A DNA stretch of 64,000 nt, taken from a virus. The translations under genes and the position numbers were made by a program. Location of the stretch: the IMG/VR virus record IMGVR_UViG_3300026274_000001; one strand, written 5' to 3'. The number at the start of each line of letters is the position of its first letter. Position 1 is the stretch's first letter. Of this stretch, positions 12,885 to 55,230 are shown piece after piece. The notes under the pieces were generated by a model. That model worked only from the letters and a program-made list of their open reading frames with translations, had not been told where the DNA came from and ran no database searches.

Positions 12885-12928
12885 TGGAGTAAAATGATCT
12901 CAGGTGGAGTAAAATGATCTCAGGTGGA
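12885..12928 (+). repeat. 20-bp tandem duplication
   Basis: TGGAGTAAAATGATCTCAGG twice plus TGGA. Confidence 0.9.
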
Positions 12929-14142: not shown

Positions 14143-14189
14143 TAAACAAAGGCGAGGCGTAGAATTGCGGTGTTATCATATAGTATCAA

Positions 14190-14776: not shown

Positions 14777-14778
14777 TC

Positions 14779-18063: not shown

Positions 18064-18296
18064 ATATTCTCTCGCGAGATGTCCCCCTACATAAACGAAT
18101 AGAACATCGAAACGAGATGCGTGCTTGGCTGGCCATGAATGTGGGGCCGCGCGGGGTTACACCTTATGGACAGGATCTACACAATTCTGGTGCCGGTTGG
18201 CATATACGATGCGATCATGAAGTAACACCAATCACTTGGTATGCTGATATTGACGACGAGCAATTGGCATTAATGTTCAAACTATGTTTTTCTTGA
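18045..18296 (+). CDS. FKLxW-family small protein
   Basis: AWLAMNVGP...GAGW...LALMFKLCF. Confidence 0.8.
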   Translation: MVSVNLNILSRDVPLHKRIEHRNEMRAWLAMNVGPRGVTPYGQDLHNSGAGWHIRCDHEVTPITWYADIDDEQLALMFKLCFS

Positions 18297-18298
18297 TT

Positions 18299-18532
18299 AT
18301 GATAGATCTCACACGTCACCTTAGCTGTGTCAACTTTTCCGAACGATTGTACAACGTCGTGAGCTGGCTCATTACCAATATTGGACCTATGAAGTTTGAT
18401 AAGCTTGGGCACACGCAAGGTCACGGATGGCTACTAATTAGTAAGACTGACACCGAGTATTCATATTACGAGTACAAGTTATATTTTGATGAACCAAATG
18501 ATGAACTTATGTTTAAGCTAGCCTGCTTATGA
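18299..18532 (+). CDS. FKLxW-family small protein
   Basis: SWLITNIGP...GHGW...DELMFKLAC. Confidence 0.8.
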   Translation: MIDLTRHLSCVNFSERLYNVVSWLITNIGPMKFDKLGHTQGHGWLLISKTDTEYSYYEYKLYFDEPNDELMFKLACL

Positions 18533-18789
18533 CATCATCCGTTTATCGACTTACTGATATCAATCAAATTATCAACCCTAGTCCAATGCTTTCATGGCTT
18601 GATGCCAATGTTGGCCCCCTTACCTTCCAATACAAAACACTGCTGGATAACGATATTGCGGCTGAGGGTATCAATTGGCGCGTAGTGAAATTGTATCAAC
18701 GTATTGGCGATGGTTCATATCAATATTCAATATTCATTGAATTTCAAAACTCCACCGATCTTATTCACTTCAAACTTGTATGGGGATAA
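18529..18789 (+). CDS. FKLxW-family small protein
   Basis: SWLDANVGP...GINW...DLIHFKLVW. Confidence 0.8.
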   Translation: MTSSVYRLTDINQIINPSPMLSWLDANVGPLTFQYKTLLDNDIAAEGINWRVVKLYQRIGDGSYQYSIFIEFQNSTDLIHFKLVWG

Positions 18790-19067
18790 TCGATGTCACC
18801 AATATGTTTTATGATGGACTGTACAGCCCCAAATACGATACGATGCTTGCATGGTTGGAAGAGTGTTGTGGTCCTAGAATATTCGGAAAACGAGAGCCAA
18901 ATGCAAGTGGCATAATTCCAGTGTGCCAAAGTAGCAATTGGCGGCTATTTGCTATATCATACCCCTTACGTAGAGCATACCCCGATATACAATTTCGATC
19001 ATCTGGATGGGTCATTGAGTTTGATAACGATAGTGACCTTCTGATGTTTACGCTTAGATGGAAATGA
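18780..19067 (+). CDS. FKLxW-family small protein
   Basis: AWLEECCGP...DLLMFTLRW. Confidence 0.8.
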   Translation: MGIIDVTNMFYDGLYSPKYDTMLAWLEECCGPRIFGKREPNASGIIPVCQSSNWRLFAISYPLRRAYPDIQFRSSGWVIEFDNDSDLLMFTLRWK

Positions 19068-19074
19068 TAGACGC

Positions 19075-19416
19075 ATGTACGCAATTGATGTTAGTGATAG
19101 GACTGATGGGCGAGCCGATGCATTTATTAAAATGCTTGATTGGTTGAACGAGGTAGTCGGCCCTCTTATATCGGAAGATCAGAGAACGGCAGAAATTAAC
19201 GACAATGGTTCAAAACGTTTTTTCAAAATTGAAGGTACCGGTTGGTATTATGAGTACTGTTCAATACGTATTGGCGCCAATGATACTCGTGAATTTAAAC
19301 TTCCAAAATTCTTCCATGACGCTGGTCAACGTGCAGGTGGTAGCACCCTATATACATCTAAAGTCATGTACATAGAAGACCCTATTCATGCTGTGGCATT
19401 CAAATTGACATGGTAA
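19075..19416 (+). CDS. FKLxW-family small protein
   Basis: DWLNEVVGP...GTGW...HAVAFKLTW. Confidence 0.8.
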   Translation: MYAIDVSDRTDGRADAFIKMLDWLNEVVGPLISEDQRTAEINDNGSKRFFKIEGTGWYYEYCSIRIGANDTREFKLPKFFHDAGQRAGGSTLYTSKVMYIEDPIHAVAFKLTW

Positions 19417-19754
19417 GAATAGATCTACATGGCATACGCACCCAGACTAGTCTTGAATGCTGGTTCGAGTGGCTAGATCATAATATTGCGCCGCGAACGG
19501 TCACCAATCATGATCCTAACGAGTCATTACCTAGCGATGTTGTCGATCATCATTTTTACACCGGTGGTCCTGGGTGGCAATTTCATTATGTAATGACGAC
19601 ATTGGCACCAGCAGATTGTGATAGAAATCTTTATGAATGTGTTTTTGCTGCAGAGGAACGCGGACCAGCAGAATTACATTATGTTGCCATGTATTTTGAA
19701 TTCGAAAATGATGCAGAAGCCGTTATGTTTAAACTAATAATGAACGAGATCTGA
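19410..19754 (+). CDS. FKLxW-family small protein
   Basis: EWLDHNIAP...GPGW...EAVMFKLIM. Confidence 0.8.
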   Translation: MVRIDLHGIRTQTSLECWFEWLDHNIAPRTVTNHDPNESLPSDVVDHHFYTGGPGWQFHYVMTTLAPADCDRNLYECVFAAEERGPAELHYVAMYFEFENDAEAVMFKLIMNEI

Positions 19755-19756
19755 CC

Positions 19757-20086
19757 ATGCATGTCTTTAATGCATTCTTGCTTGGTGACGTAACAACTTT
19801 GTTTGATTGGCTTGAAAGTAACGTAGGTGACTTTGAATATGAAAGCCCCAAACACCCACCAGAGCCGCATTCATACTACTTTGAACGTCGTGGTGCTGGA
19901 TGGCGATTTAAGTACATTACCACCTTGAATCATATGGACATTTACCCAGACGATTTTGCACATAAGCAATGGCATGTTGTGGGTGCCGAATCGTTTGATG
20001 TTCGCCATTATGCAGTAGTAGAACTTGATAGTGATGCCGATGCAGTTATGTTTAAACTTCGGTGGACCGGCCATGCATCTATTTAA
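19757..20086 (+). CDS. FKLxW-family small protein
   Basis: DWLESNVG...GAGW...DAVMFKLRW. Confidence 0.8.
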   Translation: MHVFNAFLLGDVTTLFDWLESNVGDFEYESPKHPPEPHSYYFERRGAGWRFKYITTLNHMDIYPDDFAHKQWHVVGAESFDVRHYAVVELDSDADAVMFKLRWTGHASI

Positions 20087-20339
20087 TGTAACTAAATGGG
20101 CTAGAGAGTACGATTGGTTTACGTTCGAGAATTGGCTAAACGATAATATTGGTCCTAGAACTGCTCTCACGATGCAAAGCAAGCGCCGCTTCATGACTTA
20201 TATTGGCGACGGTTGGCAGATGAAAGTCGTTTATGGTACACGACCACAACGAGAACGATGGAATATAGTACAGGCTATTGTTAAAATAGGCGAAGAGTAT
20301 GATGCGGCTGCTGTGATGTTTAAACTTCAATGGATGTGA
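20073..20339 (+). CDS. FKLxW-family small protein
   Basis: NWLNDNIGP...GDGW...AAVMFKLQW. Confidence 0.8.
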   Translation: MHLFNVTKWAREYDWFTFENWLNDNIGPRTALTMQSKRRFMTYIGDGWQMKVVYGTRPQRERWNIVQAIVKIGEEYDAAAVMFKLQWM

Positions 20340-20340
20340 A

Positions 20341-20598
20341 ATGGCGACGTTTGAAAACTTCATTGATGGATGGGACATTGCAAAGGCCGAGATGGTCAAG
20401 GCATGGTTGATTCAAAACATTGGTCCGCAGCTTGAAAAAGTTAAAGGATATGAATCAGTTGGTGCTGGTTGGAGTTTGACTGCATCTTCTCCTGGGTTCG
20501 TGCATAATAACCATACCCTTGACTTCGTTGCTCCATTGTGGATACTATCTATCGAAGATGATGTATTAGCATTGCAATTCAAGCTAACCTGGCTGTAA
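20341..20598 (+). CDS. FKLxW-family small protein
   Basis: AWLIQNIGP...GAGW...LALQFKLTW. Confidence 0.8.
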   Translation: MATFENFIDGWDIAKAEMVKAWLIQNIGPQLEKVKGYESVGAGWSLTASSPGFVHNNHTLDFVAPLWILSIEDDVLALQFKLTWL

Positions 20599-20613
20599 TT
20601 AGTTAGAAACAAG

Positions 20614-20638
20614 AAAGCCACCCGAAGGTGGCTTTTTT
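20614..20638. terminator. bidirectional intrinsic terminator
   Basis: AAAGCCACC-CGAA-GGTGGCTTTTTT between convergent genes. Confidence 0.85.
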
Positions 20639-20652
20639 ACAACTAGACGGGT

Positions 20653-20778
20653 TTATTGACCCTTGTATACAGCAGCTGGTGTGTTTGTGTCTACTGGAGT
20701 AGCTTTAACGTGCACCATTACGTATACCAGACCGACCACCAAAACAGCAGCAACGATCATAGCGATTTTCTTCATCAT
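20653..20778 (-). CDS. small membrane/secreted protein (41 aa)
   Basis: MMKKIAMIVAAVLVVGLVYVMVHVKATPVDTNTPAAVYKGQ; TAAATA upstream on the minus strand. Confidence 0.65.
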   Translation of the reverse strand: MMKKIAMIVAAVLVVGLVYVMVHVKATPVDTNTPAAVYKGQ

Positions 20779-20876
20779 GATGAAATTCTTTTAGAAGTTT
20801 GAGGGCCAAAATTAGCTCTCCTTCTATTTAAGGTGAAAATCGAGTAGGTAAAATCATTATTTTATATTGTAACCAA

Positions 20877-21152
20877 ATGGCAACAATTGACATATCTGAG
20901 TTGGCGACATCAGATATACATAAGTACTACGATTTGCTAGATTGGCTTGAAACTGAAGTAGGTCAGCATGTAAAGAAGGGTAACAACCATGCTATTTGTA
21001 TTTTTGAATCAAAAGACTATTCGATTCAAAGATCATTTGGTATTGGCTGGCATCTTGATTACATCGTTAACGAGGATATGACCCATCGTGTCCTAACGGT
21101 GTATGACGAATTGAAAGCATTGATGGTTAAATTGATTTTTTGCGGCGCATGA
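20877..21152 (+). CDS. FKLxW-family small protein
   Basis: DWLETEVG...GIGW...KALMVKLIF. Confidence 0.8.
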   Translation: MATIDISELATSDIHKYYDLLDWLETEVGQHVKKGNNHAICIFESKDYSIQRSFGIGWHLDYIVNEDMTHRVLTVYDELKALMVKLIFCGA

Positions 21153-21436
21153 CTACTACTTTACCTATAAAGATAACAAATTCGATAGCATTAATTCCGT
21201 TCACTATGCATTGTGATAGGAATAATCCTAATCGAGTAAACAAGTTTGGAAGAGAATTGCTTGAGGGTGGTTGGACTATTGTGCCGGCCCTTCGACACAA
21301 TTTTCTGGTGTTAACTGATTGGTGTGCCGCCAATTTTGATCATGCTGACTTTGGTTACAATCTAGTAGTGCGAGCGTTCATCTTCAAGCATATAGCCGAG
21401 GCAGTCCAGTTCAAGCTTGCTTGCTTGGGGTCTTAG
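21149..21436 (+). CDS. FKLxW-family small protein
   Basis: DWC...FIFKHIAEAVQFKLAC. Confidence 0.75.
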   Translation: MTTTLPIKITNSIALIPFTMHCDRNNPNRVNKFGRELLEGGWTIVPALRHNFLVLTDWCAANFDHADFGYNLVVRAFIFKHIAEAVQFKLACLGS

Positions 21437-21445
21437 TGCTATCAT

Positions 21446-21715
21446 ATGAGCATGGCACACCAAATAGATAATTTCATGAGTGACTGGCTAACTGATTTCA
21501 TTACAAATCAGGGTGGAGTTCCAATTCATGCGGATATGGTTGAGGCTGGTTGGGTATCAGTTGAAGTTGCTGGTGGTATTCGATGTATTGAAGCAGAGGT
21601 ACTTGCGGTTAGATTGTTTGGAACTACTGGATTCATAATGTGTCGTATGACTCGACATTTTTGGTTTGATACTGATGCCGACGCATTGATGTTCACCTTA
21701 GCTTTTGGAAAGTAA
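21446..21715 (+). CDS. FKLxW-family small protein
   Basis: FWFDTDADALMFTLAF. Confidence 0.75.
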   Translation: MSMAHQIDNFMSDWLTDFITNQGGVPIHADMVEAGWVSVEVAGGIRCIEAEVLAVRLFGTTGFIMCRMTRHFWFDTDADALMFTLAFGK

Positions 21716-21716
21716 C

Positions 21717-21956
21717 ATGACGGTTTCGATTACCGATTACTATTTGAGCAACGTAGGTGATCCGACTAAGGTGAGCACTGCTGGACTTAACGCGGCGGGC
21801 TATTCTTACTGTAAGCTTCCACGTGATTTTGACTTTAGGCGCGCCTATGTGACTGCGCTGAATCTAGTTGGTAGTAAGAACTTTCTTACCATGGATGCAA
21901 ATATGTTCTGGTTTGACACCGCAGCCCTTGCGGTTCAATTCAGGTTGATGCTGTGA
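21717..21956 (+). CDS. FKLxW-family small protein
   Basis: FWFDTAALAVQFRLML. Confidence 0.75.
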   Translation: MTVSITDYYLSNVGDPTKVSTAGLNAAGYSYCKLPRDFDFRRAYVTALNLVGSKNFLTMDANMFWFDTAALAVQFRLML

Positions 21957-21975
21957 TGCACAGAAAAGACCAATT

Positions 21976-22278
21976 ATGTTTGTAGAACCAGCTATGCTGT
22001 GGGGACTCAGGAATATCGTCTTGAATGATTCAATTACTGAACAACGAGAACATTGGATCCAAGAGGCTGAGCGACATGGATATTTTCTGTGGGTGAATGA
22101 GTTTCCCGGCACTAGACTCGATTATCAACGTCTTCAGTTGACGTATGATGTCCTGATTCAGATGTTTGACTCCGATCAATACCTAGTCGAAGTTAGAGAT
22201 GACATGCAGTACGTATTATTTGATTCAGCATCAAATGCGATCTTATTTCGCTTCGAGATGGCGGAGCAAACGGCGTAA
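21976..22278 (+). CDS. FKLxW-family small protein
   Basis: VLFDSASNAILFRF. Confidence 0.7.
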   Translation: MFVEPAMLWGLRNIVLNDSITEQREHWIQEAERHGYFLWVNEFPGTRLDYQRLQLTYDVLIQMFDSDQYLVEVRDDMQYVLFDSASNAILFRFEMAEQTA

Positions 22279-22338
22279 CGGCAGTGTACAAAAGTGATCT
22301 CACGCGTGCTAAACTAGGCTGTACGATATGAGGAACAT

Positions 22339-22536
22339 ATGAGCAAAGAACAGAGTAAAGCTGCCATTGTAGAAAGTTATGCAGAGCGAGGCGTGTTCAC
22401 TGTAGCAAGACAGTGGATTATGCAAAGGGAATGCACATATAACGGAATAACAATAAGGGATTTCCTTAACGACAAGCTAGATATACACAGTTCTGTCGTT
22501 GAAATTAATGGTGAATTTTTTGCAACAGACGATTAA
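22339..22536 (+). CDS. hypothetical protein (not a family member)
   Basis: GAGG RBS; lacks family motif. Confidence 0.65.
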   Translation: MSKEQSKAAIVESYAERGVFTVARQWIMQRECTYNGITIRDFLNDKLDIHSSVVEINGEFFATDD

Positions 22537-22801
22537 ACAGCCAGAAAATCTGTATTCTTGGATGCAAGAAATGGTCGAACGCAAGCCAGCTTCATTATCA
22601 GTAGAAGCTCAAGCCGTTGGTTTGTCCATTGTGGAAATTCCGATAGAACAAGTTGTGGATAAGTGGACGGCAATATACAACTGGTGTTGTGAACACGGCG
22701 TCCCTCAACAAGATTTCCAAATGTATTGGCATGAACGAATCTTAACCGGATTTTTCAAGTCCGTACAGTTGGCACTCATGTACAAGTTGCGATGGGGATG
22801 A
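22508..22801 (+). CDS. FKLxW-family small protein
   Basis: NWC...LALMYKLRW. Confidence 0.75.
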   Translation: MVNFLQQTIKQPENLYSWMQEMVERKPASLSVEAQAVGLSIVEIPIEQVVDKWTAIYNWCCEHGVPQQDFQMYWHERILTGFFKSVQLALMYKLRWG

Positions 22802-22802
22802 T

Positions 22803-23063
22803 ATGAACGTTCGAGAGTACTTTAGGACTGAAGTGTATAGTGTCAGTGAAAGTAATAAAGAACGAAAGCGATTGATGGAAAATGCGGGGTTTGTTCAATT
22901 ACCGTGCCCGCAAAAGGTTAGAGTATCAAGCATCGCCAAATGGTGCGACGAAGTAATAGGACATGCGAATTTTGTTATTTGTCAGAACCTAATATTCTTC
23001 CAAGATGTCGATTGCGCCTTAAAATATAAAATCATGTTTGAACTCAATAGTAATTTGCAATAA
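22803..23063 (+). CDS. FKLxW-family small protein
   Basis: KWC...FFQDVDCALKYKIMF. Confidence 0.75.
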   Translation: MNVREYFRTEVYSVSESNKERKRLMENAGFVQLPCPQKVRVSSIAKWCDEVIGHANFVICQNLIFFQDVDCALKYKIMFELNSNLQ

Positions 23064-23314
23064 TGACGTTAACTGAATTTTGCGTTCGACAAGGTCCATC
23101 CAAAGCAGGAAAAATGGTGTTGCCTGATTTGCAAGTTCAATTTCCAATTGAAATTCAGATACCACCAGCATTGCATAGCGAAGCTGTATATGAGGCCGCA
23201 GCAGCTTGGGCAGATAATGCGTTCGGCAGTACATGCTTTGTTGAAGTAGCGTACCGGTTCTTCTTTACGACTGATAGTAACGCAATGCAGTTCAAACTTG
23301 CTTGGTGTTTATGA
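23063..23314 (+). CDS. FKLxW-family small protein
   Basis: AWA...SNAMQFKLAW. Confidence 0.75.
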   Translation: MTLTEFCVRQGPSKAGKMVLPDLQVQFPIEIQIPPALHSEAVYEAAAAWADNAFGSTCFVEVAYRFFFTTDSNAMQFKLAWCL

Positions 23315-23553
23315 TGTATATAAGTGACGTCATGAAGATCAGTGATGGCAGTAATCATTTCGAATTCACGCTGCAACATTACAAATGGATGATTGACCTC
23401 AATAATCGTCCTGATCTCAGTATGGATCATTTCCGTGATGCAGATCAATGGTGTGTCACAAATCTCCCAGACGATGATTTTGTAATTGCCCCACGCAAAT
23501 TCTTCTTCCGTTATCTAACGGATGCCACACTCTTCCGGTTAATATTCAGTTAG
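23311..23553 (+). CDS. FKLxW-family small protein
   Basis: QWC...TDATLFRLIF. Confidence 0.75.
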   Translation: MMYISDVMKISDGSNHFEFTLQHYKWMIDLNNRPDLSMDHFRDADQWCVTNLPDDDFVIAPRKFFFRYLTDATLFRLIFS

Positions 23554-23615
23554 GCAAATTGTTCTGAATACCAAGTTGTTGTAGACTTGCCATATGCAAT
23601 GTGGCAAGGAGACCT

Positions 23616-23888
23616 ATGACGACACGCTTTTACCTTGATGTAGACTACAATGAAGCATTAGAAATTGAACGATGGCTAAATGTGAATATTGGCCCTCAAG
23701 TAAAAGAAGTCATCCCCAAGAAAAATATCAAAATAATGAATTGGGAATCAAGGTTTCAATTTAGTGCAGACTGGGAAACTAGACAATTGATGGTAGAAAT
23801 ACTTGATGACCGCGATGCGGTCGTATTCAAGTTGACTTGGACCGAACAGATTCTACGAAACAAAACGGTAAAGTTAGATTGGAAATGA
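23616..23888 (+). CDS. FKLxW-family small protein
   Basis: AAGGAG RBS; RWLNVNIGP...RDAVVFKLTW. Confidence 0.8.
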   Translation: MTTRFYLDVDYNEALEIERWLNVNIGPQVKEVIPKKNIKIMNWESRFQFSADWETRQLMVEILDDRDAVVFKLTWTEQILRNKTVKLDWK

Positions 23889-24166
23889 ATAGAACAACAA
23901 TAAATGACATTTCGTTCACAAGTAAACAATACGATAAAATTCGTATGTGGCTTCGTGATCATATCAGTCCACAAGATCTAGATATTCACCTAGAAGAACG
24001 ATGGGATAGTTTTGGTCCAGCTTTTGATAATTCGGTGGTATTTGGTGGCATTGGCTGGCGACTTTATATATCAATCGATACCAATCACAAGACAGGAACT
24101 GCTACCGTTGATATCGAGGACGACACTATGGCAGTAATGTTTGCCCTGATGGCTAGGGATTTGTGA
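23885..24166 (+). CDS. FKLxW-family small protein
   Basis: MWLRDHISP...GIGW...MAVMFAL. Confidence 0.8.
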   Translation: MNRTTINDISFTSKQYDKIRMWLRDHISPQDLDIHLEERWDSFGPAFDNSVVFGGIGWRLYISIDTNHKTGTATVDIEDDTMAVMFALMARDL

Positions 24167-24435
24167 TGGCGCATTTCACAGTAGTAAAAGATATGCTGGC
24201 TATCGATATTGTTGACTATCGCCGTAAAGTCTTAGAATGGCTAGCTGCTCGTGCAGGTAGTTATCTGAAACATGAGAATCAAGAGTTATTCAGTGAAACT
24301 TATACTGCTGACACCTGGTCTGTAGAAGTGCTTTCATTCCTTGGTAAGTTTCATAATTGGCGTATGGAATATGAAATTGAAATCGCCGATGATATCGTGG
24401 CTGTTGAGTTTGCACTGATAAAAGATTCGCTGTAA
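24166..24435 (+). CDS. FKLxW-family small protein
   Basis: EWL...DDIVAVEFAL. Confidence 0.75.
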   Translation: MAHFTVVKDMLAIDIVDYRRKVLEWLAARAGSYLKHENQELFSETYTADTWSVEVLSFLGKFHNWRMEYEIEIADDIVAVEFALIKDSL

Positions 24436-24512
24436 CAAATTGGTAAAACATCTTTAGTAGTTGCCAGTCTTTGTTTATAATTGCTTCTGGCATTTAGAAC
24501 TGGCGCCCATCG

Positions 24513-24779
24513 ATGAGTATAATAAAAACACGCTTTACCGCAATCGAGCAGCGGAACGAAGCTTTCACATGGTTACGTCAGAAAGAAATTCATTACGCCG
24601 TCCATTCTATAAATTCTCAGAGAACACATTTGGCTCCCCATGCGGATGCCTACTTCACTATAAGTGATAAACTGGTTGCTCTGGAGTTCATGCTTAGATT
24701 CGACGGCGTTTTGGTGCCGGAAGATGAATACAACCACATATTGGCCGTCTTTCACGCCGGCGGCCTTATTTCACGCTAA
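24513..24779 (+). CDS. FKLxW-family small protein
   Basis: TWL...DKLVALEFMLRF. Confidence 0.75.
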   Translation: MSIIKTRFTAIEQRNEAFTWLRQKEIHYAVHSINSQRTHLAPHADAYFTISDKLVALEFMLRFDGVLVPEDEYNHILAVFHAGGLISR

Positions 24780-24792
24780 AACTGGAGCTTAT

Positions 24793-25077
24793 ATGATTTA
24801 TGAACGACAAGCTTTTCTTAGGAACTTTTCAGATGTATCGAAGGATATCTTATTGATTCCCGAGTATGATCCAGCTTTTGGCACTCCATGTAAGTGTCAA
24901 TTTTTTACAAATAGATCCCCATTAGAATGGGATGAACCTGGATTCAAGAGTCAATTCTGGGCTTGGGTGGATGCCAATATGCGCGGTGAAGTTCGAGTAT
25001 TTTCTAGTGGTGACGAAGCCGAATGGATTGGGTTCACCAATTACAAAGACGCTTTCGAATTTGTTTTATCGTGGTAA
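24793..25077 (+). CDS. FKLxW-family small protein
   Basis: GGAG RBS; AWV...GFTNYKDAFEFVLSW. Confidence 0.75.
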   Translation: MIYERQAFLRNFSDVSKDILLIPEYDPAFGTPCKCQFFTNRSPLEWDEPGFKSQFWAWVDANMRGEVRVFSSGDEAEWIGFTNYKDAFEFVLSW

Positions 25078-25343
25078 CAAACAAGTTTCGTATTACTCAT
25101 TTGGTAAAAGATCGTACCTTACCAACAACCTCTATCATAAACGGTTGTGTGTACGTTAACCTGATGTCGACTGATGCTCAAATACTAGCCATTCAAGAAT
25201 GGGTAGACGACAACGTTGAATACGATAATATTACGGTGACGACTGATACTATCTATTCCACGACTGGTGGATGGATACAAAATTACTATGTGGAGTTTGA
25301 CAATGATGTCGATGCTCTTATGTTTAAACTGAAATGGCTCTAA
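25071..25343 (+). CDS. FKLxW-family small protein
   Basis: EWV...VEFDNDVDALMFKLKW; GTG start overlapping upstream Trp codon inferred. Confidence 0.75.
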   Translation: MVTNKFRITHLVKDRTLPTTSIINGCVYVNLMSTDAQILAIQEWVDDNVEYDNITVTTDTIYSTTGGWIQNYYVEFDNDVDALMFKLKWL

Positions 25344-25624
25344 AATTAAAATACGAATTCGAGTCAAATTCGTGGCATCGATATCCACATTTAGTTTCGT
25401 GGAGAGAAGCAGACTCCAAACCCAAACTAACTGATCCGAATGAAAATCTAGTGGGTGAAATGGCGGCATTCTTGCGCCATTCAAATATCGACCATAGTCG
25501 ATTGATGTTGAATGAATACAATATTCATACTTACAAAATGCCATATAAGATTATGTCAGGTTTTCGTTTCTTAAATGAAAACGAAGCTATGATATTTTGG
25601 TTGAAATACCAAGGTATTGAATAA
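25334..25624 (+). CDS. FKLxW-family small protein
   Basis: YPHLVSW...SGFRFLNENEAMIFWLKY. Confidence 0.75.
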   Translation: MALKLKYEFESNSWHRYPHLVSWREADSKPKLTDPNENLVGEMAAFLRHSNIDHSRLMLNEYNIHTYKMPYKIMSGFRFLNENEAMIFWLKYQGIE

Positions 25625-25926
25625 TGCCATTAGTACTCAGACATCTTAAAGAATGGCACCCAGAAGATCCATTTCCTTATCGAGTATATTGGGAAAAAAA
25701 GGATGAACGATTCCCATATGGTAATAGACCGCATACCATGTTATTAAATGAAATGGAAAATTTCATTAGGGATCAAGAATGGAAATTGGAATCTTATTGG
25801 GAATCAAAATCGAATGACTATTATAAAAGTTGGAATACAACATTCCATAGTGGCTTTAGATTTAAATGTCAGGAAGATTCTATGTTGTTTTGGCTCCGAT
25901 TCAATGGAGATGCAAACGACAAATGA
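25624..25926 (+). CDS. FKLxW-family small protein
   Basis: FPYRVYW...SGFRFKCQEDSMLFWLRF. Confidence 0.75.
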   Translation: MPLVLRHLKEWHPEDPFPYRVYWEKKDERFPYGNRPHTMLLNEMENFIRDQEWKLESYWESKSNDYYKSWNTTFHSGFRFKCQEDSMLFWLRFNGDANDK

Positions 25927-26189
25927 TTGTACATAATGAACCACATTGGCATCACTCTCACAAATGGTGGGTGACCTGGAACAATCATAGTTCACATGGA
26001 ACGCAACTAATTGCGTGCGCTCAGCTTTCTCTTAGTGTCGATTTTAGAGAATGGCTTGAAGCAGCGAAAATTAACTTTGTTGTAGATAATAACAAGCAAG
26101 GCAGAGCTGGATATGGTTTTAAAACTAGAGAAGATGCCTTACTCTTTTATCTGCGTTGGCAAGATGATGCCTTGGGTGTATTCTATTGA
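25923..26189 (+). CDS. FKLxW-family small protein
   Basis: WWVTW...EWL...YGFKTREDALLFYLRW. Confidence 0.75.
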   Translation: MIVHNEPHWHHSHKWWVTWNNHSSHGTQLIACAQLSLSVDFREWLEAAKINFVVDNNKQGRAGYGFKTREDALLFYLRWQDDALGVFY

Positions 26190-26428
26190 ACATAACGTAT
26201 GATACCAACATCCCAGAATTCAATTGGTGGGTAATTTGGCCTAACACTCATGCGTATTATGAGCAATACGAGTTCAATCGTAAAGTAAGAGCATGGGCCG
26301 AAGAACGTGAAATGCCATTTAGAGGGCGAAGCATTTACCATCTTGATACCACTAAGCGATACTTTGGATTCAAGACTGAATATGATGCATTAACTTTTAT
26401 TTTGGTATGGTCGAGTGATTTGATATGA
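26186..26428 (+). CDS. FKLxW-family small protein
   Basis: WWVIW...FGFKTEYDALTFILVW. Confidence 0.75.
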   Translation: MNITYDTNIPEFNWWVIWPNTHAYYEQYEFNRKVRAWAEEREMPFRGRSIYHLDTTKRYFGFKTEYDALTFILVWSSDLI

Positions 26429-26709
26429 GTTTAGAACTAGTAGAAACCCCCAACGAAGAATATTGGAAAGCTCGAGTATATTGGACACCTACGAAATATG
26501 ATAGCTTCATGGCTGATAATGCCTATTCTACGTATTTGGCTAATCAAATACTTCTTCGAATGGAAGTGATTGATTGGTGTAAAGAACAAGAAGGCGATTC
26601 TATGATGTTACCAACCCTATGTGGTAATTCTGGCGTAGCGTTCACGAACATTGCTGATGCCACAGCATTTGCTTTGGTATGGTCAGCTAGAATATCAGAG
26701 ACGGCGTAA
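26425..26709 (+). CDS. FKLxW-family small protein
   Basis: RVYW...DWC...ADATAFALVW. Confidence 0.75.
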   Translation: MSLELVETPNEEYWKARVYWTPTKYDSFMADNAYSTYLANQILLRMEVIDWCKEQEGDSMMLPTLCGNSGVAFTNIADATAFALVWSARISETA

Positions 26710-26792
26710 TAGCAGCAAAATTTACACCAGGTATTTGTTAAATTGGCAACATGCAGTAGAATATATTTCCACAAAAACAAAAAGAGACACAA

Positions 26793-26963
26793 ATGACGCA
26801 AGCATTAGCAGCAACTTTTTTCGATGAAATCTCCGGCGAATTGATGGTTGATGTGCCACAAGAGATCATGGACGAAGTGGGTATCACACCTGGTGATGTG
26901 ATTGTTTGGAACATCGACGAAGACGGTCGAGTTACTATTACGAAAAAGACCGAAGAAGAATAA
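26793..26963 (+). CDS. AbrB/MazE/SpoVT-like swapped-hairpin DNA-binding protein (56 aa)
   Basis: GELMVDVPQEIMDEVGITPGDVIVWNIDEDGRVTITK; below ORF-track cutoff. Confidence 0.75.
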   Translation: MTQALAATFFDEISGELMVDVPQEIMDEVGITPGDVIVWNIDEDGRVTITKKTEEE

Positions 26964-27008
26964 AGTATGATGTTACCATATGAAATTATGGTAACCGGGG
27001 AGAACTGA

Positions 27009-32248: not shown

Positions 32249-32959
32249 ATGAAAACTAACGCATTTTTATATAAATGGACACAGCTTACCACTGGAAAAT
32301 GGTATATAGGTTCAAGAACTAGAAAGGGTTGCCACCCAAATGATGGTTACTTGTGTTCTAGTAAAACAGTAAAACCGTTGATTGTATCCCATCCTGAAGA
32401 ATGGAAAAGAGATATTCTGGTTGTTGGAAATCCGATTTATATTAGAGAAATAGAAACGACTTATTTGGTTAAGTTTGATGCGGCCAAGGATACTAATAGT
32501 TTTAATTTATCCAATTCTCATGGCAAATATTCTTTTACTGGACAAACTCATTCTGAAAAAACGAAATTAGCTATAAGTTTAGGTAATAAAGGAATAAAAC
32601 GACCTGGTAGCGGTAATCGAACCTCTAATAGAGGAAGTAGCGAAAATAGAGGAAATAAAAAATGTCACAAAGGCAAAAATAATCCTTGCTACGGTCGCAC
32701 GGGCAAACTAAATCCGATGTTTAATAAAAAACATCCACCAGAAATGAAAAAGGTGCTATCCGATATCAAAATGGGTGGCAAGAATCCAAATTCTAAACGA
32801 GTACTAACACCCTTTGGCCATTATGACACTCTGAAAGAAGCAGCACTTGCTTACAAAGTTTCGTCAAACACAATTAAGTATTGGATTACTACTAGTAGAC
32901 TTGGATTCAGTTTTATAAATTTAGAAAAGAATAAAGAAGAACAGAGAAATGACAGATAA
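32249..32959 (+). CDS. GIY-YIG homing endonuclease with NUMOD3-like repeats
   Basis: FLYKW...WYIGSR, HSEKTK, NPMFNKKH; AT-rich relative to neighbours. Confidence 0.8.
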   Translation: MKTNAFLYKWTQLTTGKWYIGSRTRKGCHPNDGYLCSSKTVKPLIVSHPEEWKRDILVVGNPIYIREIETTYLVKFDAAKDTNSFNLSNSHGKYSFTGQTHSEKTKLAISLGNKGIKRPGSGNRTSNRGSSENRGNKKCHKGKNNPCYGRTGKLNPMFNKKHPPEMKKVLSDIKMGGKNPNSKRVLTPFGHYDTLKEAALAYKVSSNTIKYWITTSRLGFSFINLEKNKEEQRNDR

Positions 32960-33719
32960 TACCAAGAAAACAGGTATGACAATTACAGTATCCGATGAAT
33001 TGGTTGCTGACCTGAAGACCCTGCATGGCATTGATGCCGTTACCGAAATTGTTAATTCGGTAACATCAGAGCTTGAATTGGAATTAGAACAACCAAAAGA
33101 ACCAGAACGTCGTGTGTTTTCTATCGATGTTGGTAATATGACTCCTGAACAAGCCAAGGAAGCAATCACCGCAATTCAAAACAAATATGCCGCGCTTGAT
33201 AGTGCATATAACCCCATGACTATGGGCGAAGACTACTTTTTTGCACCTGCGCCAAAGAAGAAGTTTATGTCTACTAAGACATTTAATACTGATCGCGGAT
33301 TGAGCTGCTGTTTCCGTCAATGGCGTGCCACCCATTCACATTGCTCAACACTGCACGGCTATTCAATCGGTGTGAAGTTTGTATTTGAATGTGAAGAACT
33401 GGACGAACGCAACTGGGTATTCGACTTTGGTGGTCTGAAGGATATTAAGAAATGGCTTGAGCATATGTTTGACCATACATGCTGTGTTGCAGAAGACGAT
33501 CCATTGTTGGAACAATTTAAGGCATTTGCAGCAACTGGCGTTATGGACTTGCGGATTGTCCCAGGTGTAGGCTGTGAACGTTTTGCCGAAATGATTTTTG
33601 ATCATGTCACTAAGGTGTTAGATGATTCCCGCGATACTATGTTGAACAAGACTGCACGACTTAAGTCAGTCGAAGTCTTCGAACATGGTGCTAATTCGGC
33701 GATCGTTGAACGCGACTAA
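32949..33719 (+). CDS. queD: 6-carboxy-tetrahydropterin synthase (QueD/PTPS) with N-terminal capsid-like and portal-like segments
   Basis: SHCSTLHGY, WVFDFGGLK, FDH, GCERFA, VEVFEH in the C-terminal 150 aa. Confidence 0.85.
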   Translation: MTDNTKKTGMTITVSDELVADLKTLHGIDAVTEIVNSVTSELELELEQPKEPERRVFSIDVGNMTPEQAKEAITAIQNKYAALDSAYNPMTMGEDYFFAPAPKKKFMSTKTFNTDRGLSCCFRQWRATHSHCSTLHGYSIGVKFVFECEELDERNWVFDFGGLKDIKKWLEHMFDHTCCVAEDDPLLEQFKAFAATGVMDLRIVPGVGCERFAEMIFDHVTKVLDDSRDTMLNKTARLKSVEVFEHGANSAIVERD

Positions 33720-33799: not shown

Positions 33800-34492
33800 A
33801 TGGGCTTTAGCCTTACTGCTTCATCCGTAAACTCGGCAATGATCCGTGTTTACAACTATGTCTTTGCTGCTCTGGTTCTCACTGGTGCGGTTGCATTCGG
33901 CGTAGCAAGTCAGCCGGCGTTTCTGAAGGTGTTGATGACCGGCGCCGCACAGATCGGTCTGATCGTACTGACGTTTGTATTACTGTTCAGTATCTCGTCG
34001 GTCCGTGAGTCAGAAAACGCGGTTGCTGCGAAGGTGATGTTTGGTGCATTTGCTGTTGTATGGGGACTTTTGTTCTCTGGCATTTTCGCCGCATATACGA
34101 CTGCAAGTATTTTCGCTGCTTTGTTCTCTGCTGCGGTATTATTCCTGACTATGTCCGGATACGGTTACTTCACCAAACGTGACATCACGTCGTTCGGTCA
34201 ATACTTGTTTATTGGCTTGATTGCAATCATTATCGCAAGTGTCGTTAACTTGTTTGTCGGTAGCAATACTGCATCATTGGTGATTTCAGGTTTTACTATC
34301 CTGTTGTTTATCGGTATCACCGCATGGGATGCGCAAACGATTCGTGATTCTTTGATGGCAGCTGAATCGCAAGCCAATCTTGATTACGTTGTTGTCAACG
34401 GTGCGATGTCCCTGTACTTGGACTTCTTGAACTTGTTCTTGAGTTTCCTGCGCTTTATGGGTGTTCCAGTTCCTTCGTCAAGTAACGATTGA
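33800..34492 (+). CDS. Bax inhibitor-1/YccA family membrane protein
   Basis: Seven TM segments, YGYFTKRD, TAWDAQ, A-x-SLYLDFLNLF. Confidence 0.9.
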   Translation: MGFSLTASSVNSAMIRVYNYVFAALVLTGAVAFGVASQPAFLKVLMTGAAQIGLIVLTFVLLFSISSVRESENAVAAKVMFGAFAVVWGLLFSGIFAAYTTASIFAALFSAAVLFLTMSGYGYFTKRDITSFGQYLFIGLIAIIIASVVNLFVGSNTASLVISGFTILLFIGITAWDAQTIRDSLMAAESQANLDYVVVNGAMSLYLDFLNLFLSFLRFMGVPVPSSSND

Positions 34493-35081: not shown

Positions 35082-35104
35082 AAACGCACTACGGTGCGTT
35101 TTTT
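35082..35104. terminator. bidirectional intrinsic terminator
   Basis: AAACGCAC-TACG-GTGCGTTTTTT. Confidence 0.8.
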
Positions 35105-35390
35105 AATGAGCCAATGAATCACAAAAGGTGAGTTTGAACATGACAGCATAGCTGATGCTACGAAAGCGATATTCGATCTTGTTTTGATTTGATATAGATG
35201 TGATGACGTTACAGTCATCAGTGTGGACGGTGAACTTGTAATCCACCCATACGTCATACTTGCCTACGTTCTCGTCAATCCAATCAGCAATCGTAGCTTG
35301 AACTTCAGGCAGGTTAGTAACCGTGACTGAATGTCGCCATACGTGCTTGGCGACATAGTTGGCGAAACGATTGCTAGATTTGCGAATCAT
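35103..35390 (-). CDS. FKLxW-family small protein (array B)
   Basis: DWIDENVG...YAVMFKLTF. Confidence 0.75.
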   Translation of the reverse strand: MIRKSSNRFANYVAKHVWRHSVTVTNLPEVQATIADWIDENVGKYDVWVDYKFTVHTDDCNVITSISNQNKIEYRFRSISYAVMFKLTFCDSLAH

Positions 35391-35422
35391 CAGAGCGGAT
35401 ACACAATAATACTACAGTATAG

Positions 35423-35665
35423 TTACTTTTGATCAGACCATGACAGTCTAAACATCATACCGCTAGCATCGGACTCGAACTTAACGTAGAACTTCATTTC
35501 TTCAGGCTCAACGTCTACTTCATAGTCGGTGATGTTGTGCTCACTAGCCCAGGTCTTGAACGTGTCATTGAGTATTACTGTAACATTCAACAGATCGCTT
35601 GCCTCTTCAACTGGATCCAATTGAATGCGATATAACGAATCGGGTATAAGAAATTTCATGACCAT
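35423..35665 (-). CDS. FKLxW-family small protein (array B)
   Basis: TWA...VKFESDASGMMFRLSW. Confidence 0.75.
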   Translation of the reverse strand: MVMKFLIPDSLYRIQLDPVEEASDLLNVTVILNDTFKTWASEHNITDYEVDVEPEEMKFYVKFESDASGMMFRLSWSDQK

Positions 35666-35913
35666 GTTAATTTGAACCTGATGGCTTCGGTTGCATCGTT
35701 AAAGTAAACATCTATAGCATGACTCCCAGACTTCGATACTTCCCAGTCCCAGTCAACCCATTGTGCCCCAACAAGTTCTTCAAGCTCAGGCCTTATAATT
35801 TCATTTGGATCAGAAGTCACAAATTCATTATCATTATCATCCTGTATTATACGCTCGCTTGGCCACGGCACGGTAACTGAATATGAATAGGCAGTAAATT
35901 CTTTTAATTTCAT
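35656..35913 (-). CDS. FKLxW-family small protein (array B)
   Basis: LEELVG...TEAIRFKLTW. Confidence 0.75.
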   Translation of the reverse strand: MKLKEFTAYSYSVTVPWPSERIIQDDNDNEFVTSDPNEIIRPELEELVGAQWVDWDWEVSKSGSHAIDVYFNDATEAIRFKLTWS

Positions 35914-36575
35914 TGTATGATTGGCTTGACTCTTGCTCGATCGTTCCAAGCAAGCTTGAACATTAAAGCCTCGTTTTCACTCTCAAATTCCGCGGTGAGA
36001 CCAACATGAAACGTATTTATGGCATATTTTGAATCTAGCCGTTCAGTACACCATTCTTTTATTTCTTTGACAAAGGCATCCCACTCAATCCGTTCATTTT
36101 TGGTATCGAATGGGTACATCACCTCCATTTTTAATCCCCTGGGGGCAAACCACCAGATCCTGAACGCCTCGTAGTCTTCCAAGTCCACAAACGTTAGGGT
36201 CCAGCATGAGTTTACTTGAGTTTGGGCAAATACGACATTCTTGCATTCAGTCTCAAACCAGGTATCAAACTCAGCACGTCGCCATACTCGATAGCCTTCA
36301 ATCTCGCTAATTTGAAATGTTAGCTGTCGATCGTAAAACGCTGTCCTTCCGTACCAAGCCATATGATCTATTAATGGATCATATATCGCATAATAATTAT
36401 GCTGGTTATGGGTAATATTACCCATAACAGGAAGATGCACTCCGTCAGTAGACATTACGAATAAGTTTGACGGACTATGACTATATGACTTAATAGGAAC
36501 ATGCGAGCCATTAACCATAATGGCATCCTGAGAGAAGTGCAGTGACCCAGGAATGATAGTAAGCTTGCTTGCCAT
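35910..36575 (-). CDS. FKLxW-family protein with two tandem family domains
   Basis: TWF...DLEDYEAFRIWW then EWC...ENEALMFKLAW. Confidence 0.75.
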   Translation of the reverse strand: MASKLTIIPGSLHFSQDAIMVNGSHVPIKSYSHSPSNLFVMSTDGVHLPVMGNITHNQHNYYAIYDPLIDHMAWYGRTAFYDRQLTFQISEIEGYRVWRRAEFDTWFETECKNVVFAQTQVNSCWTLTFVDLEDYEAFRIWWFAPRGLKMEVMYPFDTKNERIEWDAFVKEIKEWCTERLDSKYAINTFHVGLTAEFESENEALMFKLAWNDRARVKPIIQ

Positions 36576-36937
36576 TATCCGTGCGTCAATTTAAATTTGA
36601 TAGCATCCGTATCATCCATAATCAGTCGATGAGATGACATCTGGAAAGGAATCTTACCATCCGTGATCCAATTCGGATCATCACCAATAGCCCTAACTCC
36701 CTTTTGGTATTGCAGTGAAGGATATTCTTCCTTCAATTCTGCATAGACTGGGGCGGTCCAATCGAATGTTTCAGTAGTCATGTTGCGTGGATATGGCCGA
36801 ATGATCCAAACCGTGAACGGATCAATATCAACTTGCACGAAGTGATGAAGGCGATCACCCAAATAGTAATTCTTGTTTTGATGGTAGTCGTTTTCATTTT
36901 TGTAGACAACCAACTCATATTCTCTAATCAGTTTCAT
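36575..36937 (-). CDS. FKLxW-family small protein (array B)
   Basis: DDTDAIKFKLT; start moved to MKLIR, which overlaps the upstream stop. Confidence 0.7.
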   Translation of the reverse strand: MKLIREYELVVYKNENDYHQNKNYYLGDRLHHFVQVDIDPFTVWIIRPYPRNMTTETFDWTAPVYAELKEEYPSLQYQKGVRAIGDDPNWITDGKIPFQMSSHRLIMDDTDAIKFKLTHG

Positions 36938-37337
36938 AATTGGTATTGGATAAAAGGAATTGAACTTGTTCGGCCTCGTCATGAATTTCCACATGAAGAT
37001 ATTCACCGTCGTATGCATATTCAACACTGGTGTAATGACCGAACAGTAGTTTGCATATTTCACTATTCTCAAAGTCATGACATTTTTTCCATAGAGTCTT
37101 GTTGCGTATGACTTCTACTTTGGAATGCTTGATCACTTGGAACCGCAGTGGCGCACCATCAAGATGCGGGCAAACTTGAATAACTGTTGGAGTTGCCTCG
37201 ATTTCCCAAGCAGGTATACCACGAAATAGATAGCTATAGCTGGAACCTTGATGCATGGGAACATACGGATGCATTATCAGCAGACTGTGATGCTCTGGGA
37301 AACTTATTATTTTTCTTTTCATATCATAACGATGCAC
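36924..37337 (-). CDS. FKLxW-family small protein (array B, divergent)
   Basis: VEIHDEAEQVQFLL. Confidence 0.6.
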   Translation of the reverse strand: MHRYDMKRKIISFPEHHSLLIMHPYVPMHQGSSYSYLFRGIPAWEIEATPTVIQVCPHLDGAPLRFQVIKHSKVEVIRNKTLWKKCHDFENSEICKLLFGHYTSVEYAYDGEYLHVEIHDEAEQVQFLLSNTNYETD

Positions 37338-37386
37338 GTTTGTACCATTATGACATAGATGGCAAGTAATGTCTAGCCAGTTGTGA

Positions 37387-37743
37387 CTAGCAATACTTTA
37401 ATTTGAAGTGAAGCGCCTCGGTATCATCTTTGAATACCAAGTAATCATTGACTTCGCCCTCTAAGTAGGGAGCGTCTGGGTACAGATGCCGTTCTATTGT
37501 GATGCTAGGGAAATCTTCTTTGAAAAATGCAATGAGGGAAGATTCATTAATTGGTTGATATCTGGATTTGACCACAATCAACCGAAATTCAATCTGCTCC
37601 TCAAGCCGCAACACCAGTTCGGCATGATTCATCATTGCTCGCGAAATTGGTTCCACTTCTGACATTATCAGAACCGAATTGCCAAATTCCCTAAACATAT
37701 GCAGCATGTCAGCTCCATCGTAATCGAAACAATACTGCTTCAT
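37387..37743 (-). CDS. FKLxW-family small protein (array B)
   Basis: LVFKDDTEALHFKLKY. Confidence 0.75.
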   Translation of the reverse strand: MKQYCFDYDGADMLHMFREFGNSVLIMSEVEPISRAMMNHAELVLRLEEQIEFRLIVVKSRYQPINESSLIAFFKEDFPSITIERHLYPDAPYLEGEVNDYLVFKDDTEALHFKLKYC

Positions 37744-37960
37744 TTTCCTGTGGTAGCTCTATGCGGATCCGTATAGAGCCGATAATTGCGAATGGATTCA
37801 CGTACTCAAAAAGAATGCGATATTCAATCGCATTCTCCTGTAACCACTGGTGAACTAATGGGAATTTATCCAATAGCCATGAATCACCAGGGTCACCTTT
37901 GTACGATCTATCCCAAAACGCGTCTTCATCTACGGTTGCTAGGATAAAGTTATTGCTCAT
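37709..37960 (-). CDS. FKLxW-family small protein (array B)
   Basis: QWLQEN...NEAVLFRLRW. Confidence 0.75.
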   Translation of the reverse strand: MSNNFILATVDEDAFWDRSYKGDPGDSWLLDKFPLVHQWLQENAIEYRILFEYVNPFAIIGSIRIRIELPQENEAVLFRLRWS

Positions 37961-44967: not shown

Positions 44968-45015
44968 TCGTTAGGACTACATAAATACCTTTACAGGACT
45001 TTTAAGGGAATTTTG

Positions 45016-46278
45016 ATGTCAGACGTCGACCAAAATCTACATTGCTCTTTTTGTAAAAAAGGAGCCCAAGAAGTAAAGAAGCTTATCGCTGGCCCAGAGT
45101 CAGTTCACATTTGTGACGAATGCGTATCATTGTGCTACAGTATTCTTAATGATACAGAACAGGCCTCATCTAAGCCAGCAGAAACGAAAACAGATTTGGG
45201 CGATATTCCAAGTCCGGCAAAAATCAAAGGGTTCCTTGACCAATATGTTATTGGTCAAGATTACGCTAAGATGGTTATTTCAGTTGCCGTTCATAATCAT
45301 TATATGCGTCTCCAAAACCCCATCATTGATGAGGTTGAAATCGAGAAGAGTAATATCCTGGTGCTTGGTCCGACCGGGTCAGGTAAGACATTACTTGCGC
45401 AGTCAATTGCTCGTTGTTTGAGCGTTCCGTTTGCTATCGCGGACTCAACTGGCCTCACAGAAGCTGGTTATGTTGGTGATGACGTGGAAAGTATTGTCAG
45501 TCGTTTGTTACAGAACGCTGGTGGTGATGTGAAGAAAGCTGAACAGGGTATCATTTACCTTGACGAAATCGACAAGAAGAGCAAGAAGGATTCAGCTTCT
45601 GGCTCACGTGACGTTTCCGGCGAAGGGGTACAGCAAGCACTGCTGAAGATTATTGAAGGTTCTGATATTATGGTATCGGCGGGTGGCAAGAAAGGGCCAA
45701 ATGCTGAACAAGTTAAAATCAATACTAGAAATATTTTGTTTATCGTTGGTGGTGCATTCGTGGGTGTTGAGAAGGTAGTTGAGAAAGCTTTGAACAAAAA
45801 CAAGGGTCTTGGATTTGGTGCAAACTTGAACGACCAGAAGATTGACATAAATGATTTACTGCGTAAAGTTGAACCATCACATTTGATGAACTACGGTATA
45901 ATTCCTGAACTTATTGGCCGTTTGCCAGTTATTGCTCCTTTGCAAGAATTGTCAACAGATCAAATGGTTCGTGTATTGACTGAACCCAAAAATGCAATTG
46001 TCAAACAATTTGCAAAAATGTTTAAACTTGAAGGCGTCGAACTTGAAATCACACCAGAGGCCCTGGCTGAGATATCAGAAATCGCAATCAAGCGCAAGAC
46101 TGGTGCTCGTGGATTACGTTCCATCCTCGAAAATAACCTGATTGCAACACAATTTAAGTTGCCAGATCTAGTTGCTGCGGGCGCGACTAAAATTCTAGTA
46201 ACTCTTGAAACAATCCGTGAAGGGAAAGAGCCGCAAATCCTTTATGGCAATGATAACAAATCAATTGCGACTCAATAA
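45016..46278 (+). CDS. clpX: ATP-dependent Clp protease ATP-binding subunit ClpX
   Basis: CSFC...C-x-x-C zinc domain, GPTGSGKT, TEAGYVG, DEIDK, RDVSGEGVQQALLK, LGF loop, TGARGLR. Confidence 0.95.
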   Translation: MSDVDQNLHCSFCKKGAQEVKKLIAGPESVHICDECVSLCYSILNDTEQASSKPAETKTDLGDIPSPAKIKGFLDQYVIGQDYAKMVISVAVHNHYMRLQNPIIDEVEIEKSNILVLGPTGSGKTLLAQSIARCLSVPFAIADSTGLTEAGYVGDDVESIVSRLLQNAGGDVKKAEQGIIYLDEIDKKSKKDSASGSRDVSGEGVQQALLKIIEGSDIMVSAGGKKGPNAEQVKINTRNILFIVGGAFVGVEKVVEKALNKNKGLGFGANLNDQKIDINDLLRKVEPSHLMNYGIIPELIGRLPVIAPLQELSTDQMVRVLTEPKNAIVKQFAKMFKLEGVELEITPEALAEISEIAIKRKTGARGLRSILENNLIATQFKLPDLVAAGATKILVTLETIREGKEPQILYGNDNKSIATQ

Positions 46279-46288
46279 CGAGGAAATA

Positions 46289-46825
46289 GTGACACCAAAA
46301 TTGGAAATGAACGAGCGAATCACAAGTCAAAAGGTTCGCTTGATTGACGCACAAGGCGTTCAAAAGGGCGTAGTCAGCATTCGAGACGCCCTGTATCAAG
46401 CACGACAAGCTAATCTGGATCTGGTGAAGATTGCAGAAGCAAACCCGCCCGTTTGTAAGATTGTCGACGCTGGTAAATACGTCTATGAGCAAGACAAGGC
46501 AAAGAAAGAACTTGCGAAGAAGCAGCGTGCAAATGCTGTGGAACTCAAAGAGGTTCAGTTGCGTCCAACCACCGACCTGAATGACATCAAAATCAAGGCA
46601 CGTAAAGCACGTGAATTTTTGGAAGATGGCGATAAGGTGAAAGTTGTCATGCGTTTCCGTGGTCGAGAAATCACCCACAAAGAAGTTGGCCAAGCAGTCA
46701 TCAACCAATTCATCAAAGAACTTGGTGAAGTGCGTATGGAGCAGCCTGTCACCCAGCAGGGCAACCAAATTACGGCGCTAATCGCCCCGGCAAAGAAAGA
46801 AGCCAAACAGGAAAAGGCAGCTTAA
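46289..46825 (+). CDS. infC: translation initiation factor IF-3
   Basis: NERI...VRLID, LDLVKI, PPVCKI, KEVQL, FLEDGDKVKV-x-MRFRGRE; start inferred from GAGG RBS. Confidence 0.93.
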   Translation: MTPKLEMNERITSQKVRLIDAQGVQKGVVSIRDALYQARQANLDLVKIAEANPPVCKIVDAGKYVYEQDKAKKELAKKQRANAVELKEVQLRPTTDLNDIKIKARKAREFLEDGDKVKVVMRFRGREITHKEVGQAVINQFIKELGEVRMEQPVTQQGNQITALIAPAKKEAKQEKAA

Positions 46826-54374: not shown

Positions 54375-54706
54375 TGTTCAAATTCAACATTACGAGCAAG
54401 GAGACAAACTACGGTGAATTATCGTCGTGGTTTGCCGCCAGAGACGCCAAATATGAATTTGCTTTTATTGATGTCAATGATTGGATGCATCATAAAAGCT
54501 ATCAGCTTTATGATATTGCCATTTATGATGAGCATGTGGCAGTTGAATTTAGGCTCACGTTTGGTGCTAATGTGGGCGAATCTCACAGACATCGAGCACT
54601 TGATTTGGAAGCCGAAATGACTGCTGCACTTTCAGTTGACCTTGCTAACGCAATTGATGAAGAAATTTATCAAGAATTACTGGCTGCTTGTGCAAAGAAA
54701 CAGTAA
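54374..54706 (+). CDS. FKLxW-family protein (array C) with C-terminal capsid-like helix
   Basis: SWF...HVAVEFRLTF then LDLEAEMTAALSVDLANAIDEEI. Confidence 0.75.
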   Translation: MFKFNITSKETNYGELSSWFAARDAKYEFAFIDVNDWMHHKSYQLYDIAIYDEHVAVEFRLTFGANVGESHRHRALDLEAEMTAALSVDLANAIDEEIYQELLAACAKKQ

Positions 54707-55229: not shown

Positions 55230-55230
55230 T

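Follow-up and report, generated by a model that had tools for sequence, protein, structure and literature searches.

A soil jumbo phage codes for a QueD-like protein whose leader joins an excerpt of a T4-superfamily capsid protein to an excerpt of a portal clip, and this fusion is real and conserved, with constraint at the protein level. The leader itself is real and selected, and no earlier description of such a fusion was found in the literature searched (mainly open papers). Its function we infer; the reading that we tentatively favor is that it is a selected mimic, a fast-evolving in-frame mosaic of capsid and portal motifs that would act as a putative bait for a host factor.

Modules of the fusion and their genomic setting

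The window, which is the whole 64,000-nucleotide stretch of DNA analyzed here, belongs to a soil jumbo phage whose topoisomerase subunit is nearest, among cultured phages, to those of Sinorhizobium phage Phosso (59%) and Agrobacterium phage Atu_ph07 (52%). The fusion, its modules, and the gene upstream are as follows:

32249..32959, + strand: GIY-YIG-type/NUMOD3 homing endonuclease gene, overlapping the fusion start by 11 bases; an optional neighbor
32949..33719, + strand: fusion ORF, 256 aa, comprising capsid excerpt, portal-clip excerpt, and QueD-like domain, a layout shared by homologues
32985..33092, + strand: capsid excerpt, aa 13-48, aligned to T4 gp23 P-domain residues 269-304
33102..33245, + strand: portal-clip excerpt, aa 52-99, aligned to T4 gp20 at about 280-336
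33258..33719, + strand: QueD-like (PTPS family) domain with motif C132-x3-H136-G-Y138; Pfam PF01242, E 6e-17

The sequence-only reading had placed a major-capsid-like and a portal-like segment ahead of a QueD domain that starts at about aa 105. Its residues and coordinates are exact, with E17 starting at 32997, P52 at 33102, and EDYFF ending at 33242, all in one frame; Pfam, PHROG, and T4 gp20/gp23 matches and a shuffle test bear out both segment identities, and the profile match puts the start of the QueD-like domain at about aa 104.

The portal segment (aa 52-99) passes the Pfam Portal_T4 (PF07230) cut-off of 22.9 with 34 bits (E 1.7e-8) and matches PHROG 213 (E 1.8e-8), and the leader profile matches T4 gp20 at 277-338 with E 3e-7 to 1e-6. 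This match spans model positions 204-261 of 433 alone. The segment shares the strand-helix and ED(Y/F)F motifs of the T4 gp20 clip but is unlike gp20 in comprising ~48 of >500 residues, with no full stem/wing/crown architecture, a 13-residue internal deletion relative to jumbo-phage portals, and an acidic helix start. The capsid segment (aa 13-47) is weaker, scoring 19 bits against Pfam Gp23 (PF07068), below the cut-off of 24.4 (E 0.001), with E 0.009 against PHROG 138 and E 0.7 against T4 gp23 267-304 in the PDB. It corresponds to a short helix plus the start of the long helix of gp23, with H26-G27-I28 aligned to His282-Gly283-Met284; unlike gp23, it has ~35 residues, spans model positions 153-187 of 376 alone, and is unable to form a whole HK97 fold. 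A tblastn search with a 43-aa capsid piece gave matches in 623 of the 50,697 phage records (E<=10), and among the 60 matches listed, 57 are annotated as capsid or head, two are hypothetical, and one is unannotated. With custom broad profiles, none of 2000 shuffles reached the real score for either segment (21.6 bits against a shuffle maximum of 4.1 in one case, and 55.9 against 5.5 in the other); the capsid profile contains seven proteins chosen as matches of the capsid segment itself, which tilts the test toward homology.

The C-terminal 152 aa match the QueD/PTPS family, with PHROG 2389 at E 2e-40 and QueD2 (7V0F) as the best structure match. Unlike QueD, the fusion adds a 100-residue leader that is absent from the listed cultured-phage homologues, and it scores 39 bits against TIGR03367, below the equivalog cut-off of 89.25; Tyr138 presumably stands where canonical QueD has His. 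The AlphaFold model (mean pLDDT 66.8, pTM 0.51) is of low confidence in the leader, with helices predicted in the capsid excerpt at aa 16-26 and 30-47 (pLDDT 53-69), and a fold search with it gave PTPS-type proteins only as top matches. Co-folding of three leader copies scored 0.00, which counts neither way, and an ESM Atlas search gave no usable match. By family tests, then, the fusion protein is neither a portal, a capsid protein, nor a canonical QueD, and since such fusions exceed the Pfam portal cut-off, they risk being misannotated as portals.

The main capsid and portal genes of this phage were not found within the 64-kb window, and the syntenic relatives G001 and G002 serve as stand-ins for them. 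Both lack the GIY-YIG/NUMOD3 gene at the queD locus, which rules out the homing endonuclease as a requirement for the leader, and both, like the window (33800-34492), have a gene for a Bax inhibitor-1 family membrane protein immediately downstream of queD. Of the queuosine-pathway genes, folE occurs in G001 and G002, and QueC is matched in part in G002 alone. In the window, a 502-aa ORF (52866-54374, + strand) has transglycosylase-like motifs and no Pfam, NCBIfam, or PHROG match; it is probably a divergent DpdA/TGT from the deazaguanine pathway. Other host-like genes in the window are ClpX, IF3, and ClpS (45013-46825, 52458-52751), and dozens of ~100-aa paralogues that share an F-x-L-x-W/F motif at the C-terminus lie at about 12900-27000, 35100-37960, and 54400-57400. 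A promoter and terminator scan gave results at chance level.

Conservation and exchange of the leader

An assembly chimera, a concern raised by the sequence-only reading, is ruled out. Two other assemblies, L225 (100% identical) and L226 (99%), carry the same fusion, and contigs from seven of eight runs bridge the module junctions, although one of these runs (X5) may be the source of the window and the 2017 soil runs may represent one campaign; the eighth run has a different allele. Six of the nine best-matching runs are RNA libraries, but the matches are to contigs and are therefore silent on transcription.

The same reading had asked whether relatives conserve the fusion. Among the best 120 of 5,174 homologues, 11 clusters carry the leader and 109 have no full-length match; most QueD homologues are leaderless. 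Eight of the 11 have both modules; P0009 has just the capsid module, P0004 has just the portal module, and P0010 starts within the portal module. A tree of 59 QueD domains places all 11 leader-bearing rows inside a 13-row clade that includes two leaderless rows (support 89/84) and has sister lineages without the leader; this is compatible with a single gain and a loss but is no proof of them. Of the 108 cultured phage records that match, none covers 80% of the fusion, and the viral-contig searches returned 22 loci without the leader, with L025 inspected from 80 further loci. The leader alone as query matched no viral contig, and a database search of proteins up to 448 aa for stand-alone leader forms of 36-195 aa gave two matches, both damaged copies of the fusion.

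The leader diverges far more than the enzyme that it precedes, with 48-55% identity between the window and its three nearest relatives compared to 93-94% for QueD, and with leaders overall spanning 31-55% identity to the window's own. Nonetheless, R54, V56, F57, D60, Y96, and F97 are unchanged in nine of nine leaders, and LHGI is kept in seven. The capsid modules of G001 and G002 (49 codons) differ with a dS of 1.06 and a dN of 0.09, giving a dN/dS of about 0.09, a sign of purifying selection, for this single pair, which includes the most diverged capsid module and not the window's own allele. The window and L226 are separated by only two synonymous and two non-synonymous changes.

Larger differences arise by replacement of a defined tract:

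32966..33218, + strand: swapped tract, 253 bases replaced in frame by 256 others with shared flanks, in a co-occurring allele

This second allele is seen in five of seven soil runs, as a joint in X1, X4, and X6 and as a loose end in X3 and X8, and is absent from X5 and X7. It was not found in the collected loci or viral contigs and is known from two 30-letter ends, which, read by hand, are in frame, stop-free, and like other leaders. A third, patchwork allele from a peat run shares 33034-33119 with the window and replaces 133 bases by 136, and all 18 of its listed point differences are at third codon positions. Every leader swap and indel that we observed preserves the frame. Given the in-frame swaps and third-position differences, the leader thus acts like an exchangeable cassette that keeps the reading frame of a conserved enzyme. 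At the queD locus of G001 and G002 (L025 and L195), capsids are 99% identical, QueD synonymous sites are saturated, and module content differs, which suggests recombination at this locus.

Capsid and portal excerpts beyond queD

A further capsid excerpt lies elsewhere in the window:

54590..54688, + strand: second excerpt of the capsid spine helix, C-terminal in the 110-aa ORF 54374-54706; E 7e-5

The ORF follows directly after the TGT/DpdA-like gene, and G002 has a counterpart. It is a member of the small-paralogue family, and at the same place in G002 both genes bear capsid pieces. In G002, a relative with a complete genome, four capsid matches and two portal matches lie outside the real genes; one of the six may not be an excerpt but a diverged paralogue.

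We surveyed 16 genomes for such excerpts (11 uncultured jumbo phages, two cultured jumbo phages, and three smaller T4-like phages) with a method that detects conserved motifs only. There are 13 extra capsid or portal matches in seven genomes, all of them uncultured jumbo records; none was found in the two cultured jumbo phages or the three smaller T4-like records. Custom profiles confirm 12 of the 13, with the G010 match unconfirmed, and 11 span no more than 60 model positions (eight capsid and three portal). Short excerpts of sheath, prohead protease, terminase, and polymerase were not found, using control profiles that are weaker than the T4-specific ones. Self-versus-self BLAST in G002 recovers one of the six excerpts and is too blunt for an enrichment test.

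Three genomes (G001, G002, and G011) carry excerpts of gp23 94-127, the Gol region; the Gol peptide we take to be gp23 residues 94-122. The N-terminal gp23 94-127 copies in L100:1486-2016 (G001), G002 256462-256956, and L343 (G011) are fused to unrelated domains. The Gol peptide is described as acting as a short linear trigger, binding EF-Tu and activating Lit (PMC3014915).

A profile-based search of 1.84 billion representatives gave 336 matches. Among the 148 new matches listed, 86 are near-full portals, 25 are truncated portal pieces, and 37 are clip-only; removal of three false matches, one intein-split portal, and two seemingly damaged portals from the last group leaves about 30 clusters, with no cultured phage identified as carrying a clip-only gene. 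Many of these clusters have tandem clip repeats, and three also have capsid pieces. P0179 is a stand-alone 89-aa protein with the exact two-excerpt layout and order of the leader and no QueD. One to three portal-clip repeats occur in P0123, P0125, P0134, P0154, P0175, P0190, P0221, P0244, P0254, P0264, and P0215, and the three of these tested (P0125, P0134, and P0215) also match PHROGs 12349 and 23805, both of unknown function. In P0227 and P0261, inteins in portal genes adjoin the clip, and the intein-like sequence of P0227 begins a few residues past the motif at which the leader's excerpt ends.

Possible functions of the leader

Both excerpts copy parts of the head that make contacts during assembly. 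The capsid excerpt covers the T4 gp23 His282/Met284 region and keeps its His-Gly-hydrophobic motif, and these two residues are described as anchoring the portal whisker to the capsid (PMC7136217). The clip is described as the docking site for terminase and later the neck protein (PMC9958956), with T4 gp20 R295/K296 among the residues reported to bind the neck protein gp13 (PMC12929587). The four residues after the clip G-N-M are 1.44 acidic and 0.11 basic in nine leaders, versus 0.22 acidic and 1.09 basic at the same positions in 54 portal motifs. As judged from these alignments, the clip excerpt has lost the basic neck-docking residues and lacks a basic clip helix. The portal piece is closest to own-clade portals (mean score 110 versus 68), whereas the window's capsid piece has a mean of 79 against classical T4-like capsids and a mean of 54 (maximum 64) against 76 own-clade capsids; across nine leaders, six lean toward T4-type, one is a tie, and two lean the opposite way, all measured against a small T4-type set of seven drawn from matches of the same segment.

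For the putative bait, at which our confidence falls somewhat short of even, we envisage that the leader motifs, whose sources are capsid and portal genes of the T4 superfamily, would bind a host factor that recognizes them. QueD would be produced earlier than the late head proteins, a timing suggested by general knowledge of the pathway. Other PTPS/QueD enzymes are hexameric, and QueD, if it too is a hexamer, would display several leader copies. A sensor or co-factor would thus be occupied without being activated, with QueD as the carrier only, as P0179 lacks QueD and other excerpts are on unrelated small proteins. We favor a bait because the conserved motifs are the ones that a pattern receptor could be expected to recognize, because the leader diversifies and swaps like conflict genes, because the clip copy has lost its assembly-docking charge, and because relatives excerpt the Gol region, a short host-binding trigger documented in the T4 Gol/Lit account (PMC3014915).

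The sequence-only reading had likewise suggested decoys, for immune sensors such as Avs4 and CapRel; a decoy would fit the fast in-frame reshuffling and lost assembly-binding charges, while the named sensors fit poorly. Avs7, Avs8, and Avs10 are reported to bind the capsid A-domain via large shape-complementary surfaces (bioRxiv 10.64898/2026.01.04.697583), whereas the leader has a P-domain helix, and CapRel sensing was reported for another phage's capsid. More generally, and against a bait, the characterized Avs sensors in that account engage whole folds, with Avs7 burying 3,700 square angstroms (bioRxiv 10.64898/2026.01.04.697583), so that a 35-aa helix pair may fail to bind, and a leader fragment able to bind could trigger defence instead of blocking it. 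Also counting against a bait, Thoeris escape is described as mapping to the E-loop and P-loop (PMC12578639). A role in binding RelA/SpoT is ruled out, as in T7 the clip can be dispensed with and the ring must be intact (PMC13483052).

Among known systems, T4 Gol/Lit is similar in that a short capsid segment suffices to engage a host protein (PMC3014915), but Gol acts within gp23 and triggers defence, whereas the QueD leader has another capsid segment on a separate product. Like the anti-defence proteins of EVADES (PMC13728456), a putative decoy would shield the phage from pattern-sensing immunity; unlike it, those considered here are enzymes, sponges, and effector blockers (ORF55, ORF83, and Nip), none an excerpt of a sensed protein. 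The leader would work like viral mimicry but has no counterpart among the anti-defence proteins considered.

It is unlikely that the leader is tolerated recombination debris, in which in-frame head-gene pieces at the start of QueD have no partner and are harmless or aid expression. Such debris would account for leaders only 31-55% identical to the window's, the loss of modules in P0004 and P0009, and the lack of a full-length match in 109 of the 120 best homologues and in all 108 cultured records; moreover, the acidic helix-start residues could merely stabilize a free helix, a homing endonuclease adjoins the gene, and P0227 has an intein just past the same portal motif. A dN/dS of about 0.09 is not expected of debris, however, and nor are swaps and indels that are all in frame, six residues that are invariant in all nine leaders with LHGI in seven, the recurrence of both excerpts, in unchanged order, in the unrelated P0179, and about 30 clip-only clusters, many tandem.

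Quite unlikely is a dominant-negative poison of co-infecting T4-like phages, in which the capsid piece would occupy portal or capsid contacts and the clip would enter competitor portal rings. The higher score of the window's capsid excerpt against T4-like capsids (79 versus 54) would suit this, but the seven T4-like capsids were picked from the segment's own matches and the phage's own capsid gene lies outside the comparison. Retention of the portal-anchoring motif (PMC7136217) and the role of the clip as the docking place of terminase and neck (PMC9958956) also agree with a poison, but the clip excerpt is own-clade-like, with a risk of self-poisoning, and its basic docking residues are gone. 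The sequence-only reading had also raised tags that bring the enzyme to assembling proheads, and this idea is the least supported: a tag or regulator of the phage's own head assembly, with QueD brought to proheads or portal nucleation tuned, is very unlikely, even though both pieces are from portal-vertex interfaces and the clip piece is nearest the clade's own portal. The docking charges are reversed, with an acidic clip versus basic portals; the modules are lost separately, and 99% identical capsids accompany different modules (capsid only in G001, both in G002); most QueD proteins are leaderless; and similar excerpts are on unrelated small proteins. QueD-type enzymes make a soluble precursor, and have no evident role at proheads.

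The putative bait would extend, in a broader proposal that we consider doubtful, to a distributed decoy program of jumbo T4-superfamily phages, with their most conserved capsid and portal motifs carried on early enzymes and small proteins as in-frame alleles that would saturate host receptors for virion proteins ahead of the genuine proteins. If this is true, the catalogue of excerpts would map the epitopes that bacterial sensors read. Bacterial receptors sense capsid and portal because phages cannot easily alter these proteins, and diversifying excerpts of conserved motifs, if they are decoys, would be an undescribed way past that constraint. Interference with rival phages, if true, would also be a new design. 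The excerpts would mark sensed or assembly-critical epitopes, testable as short peptides.
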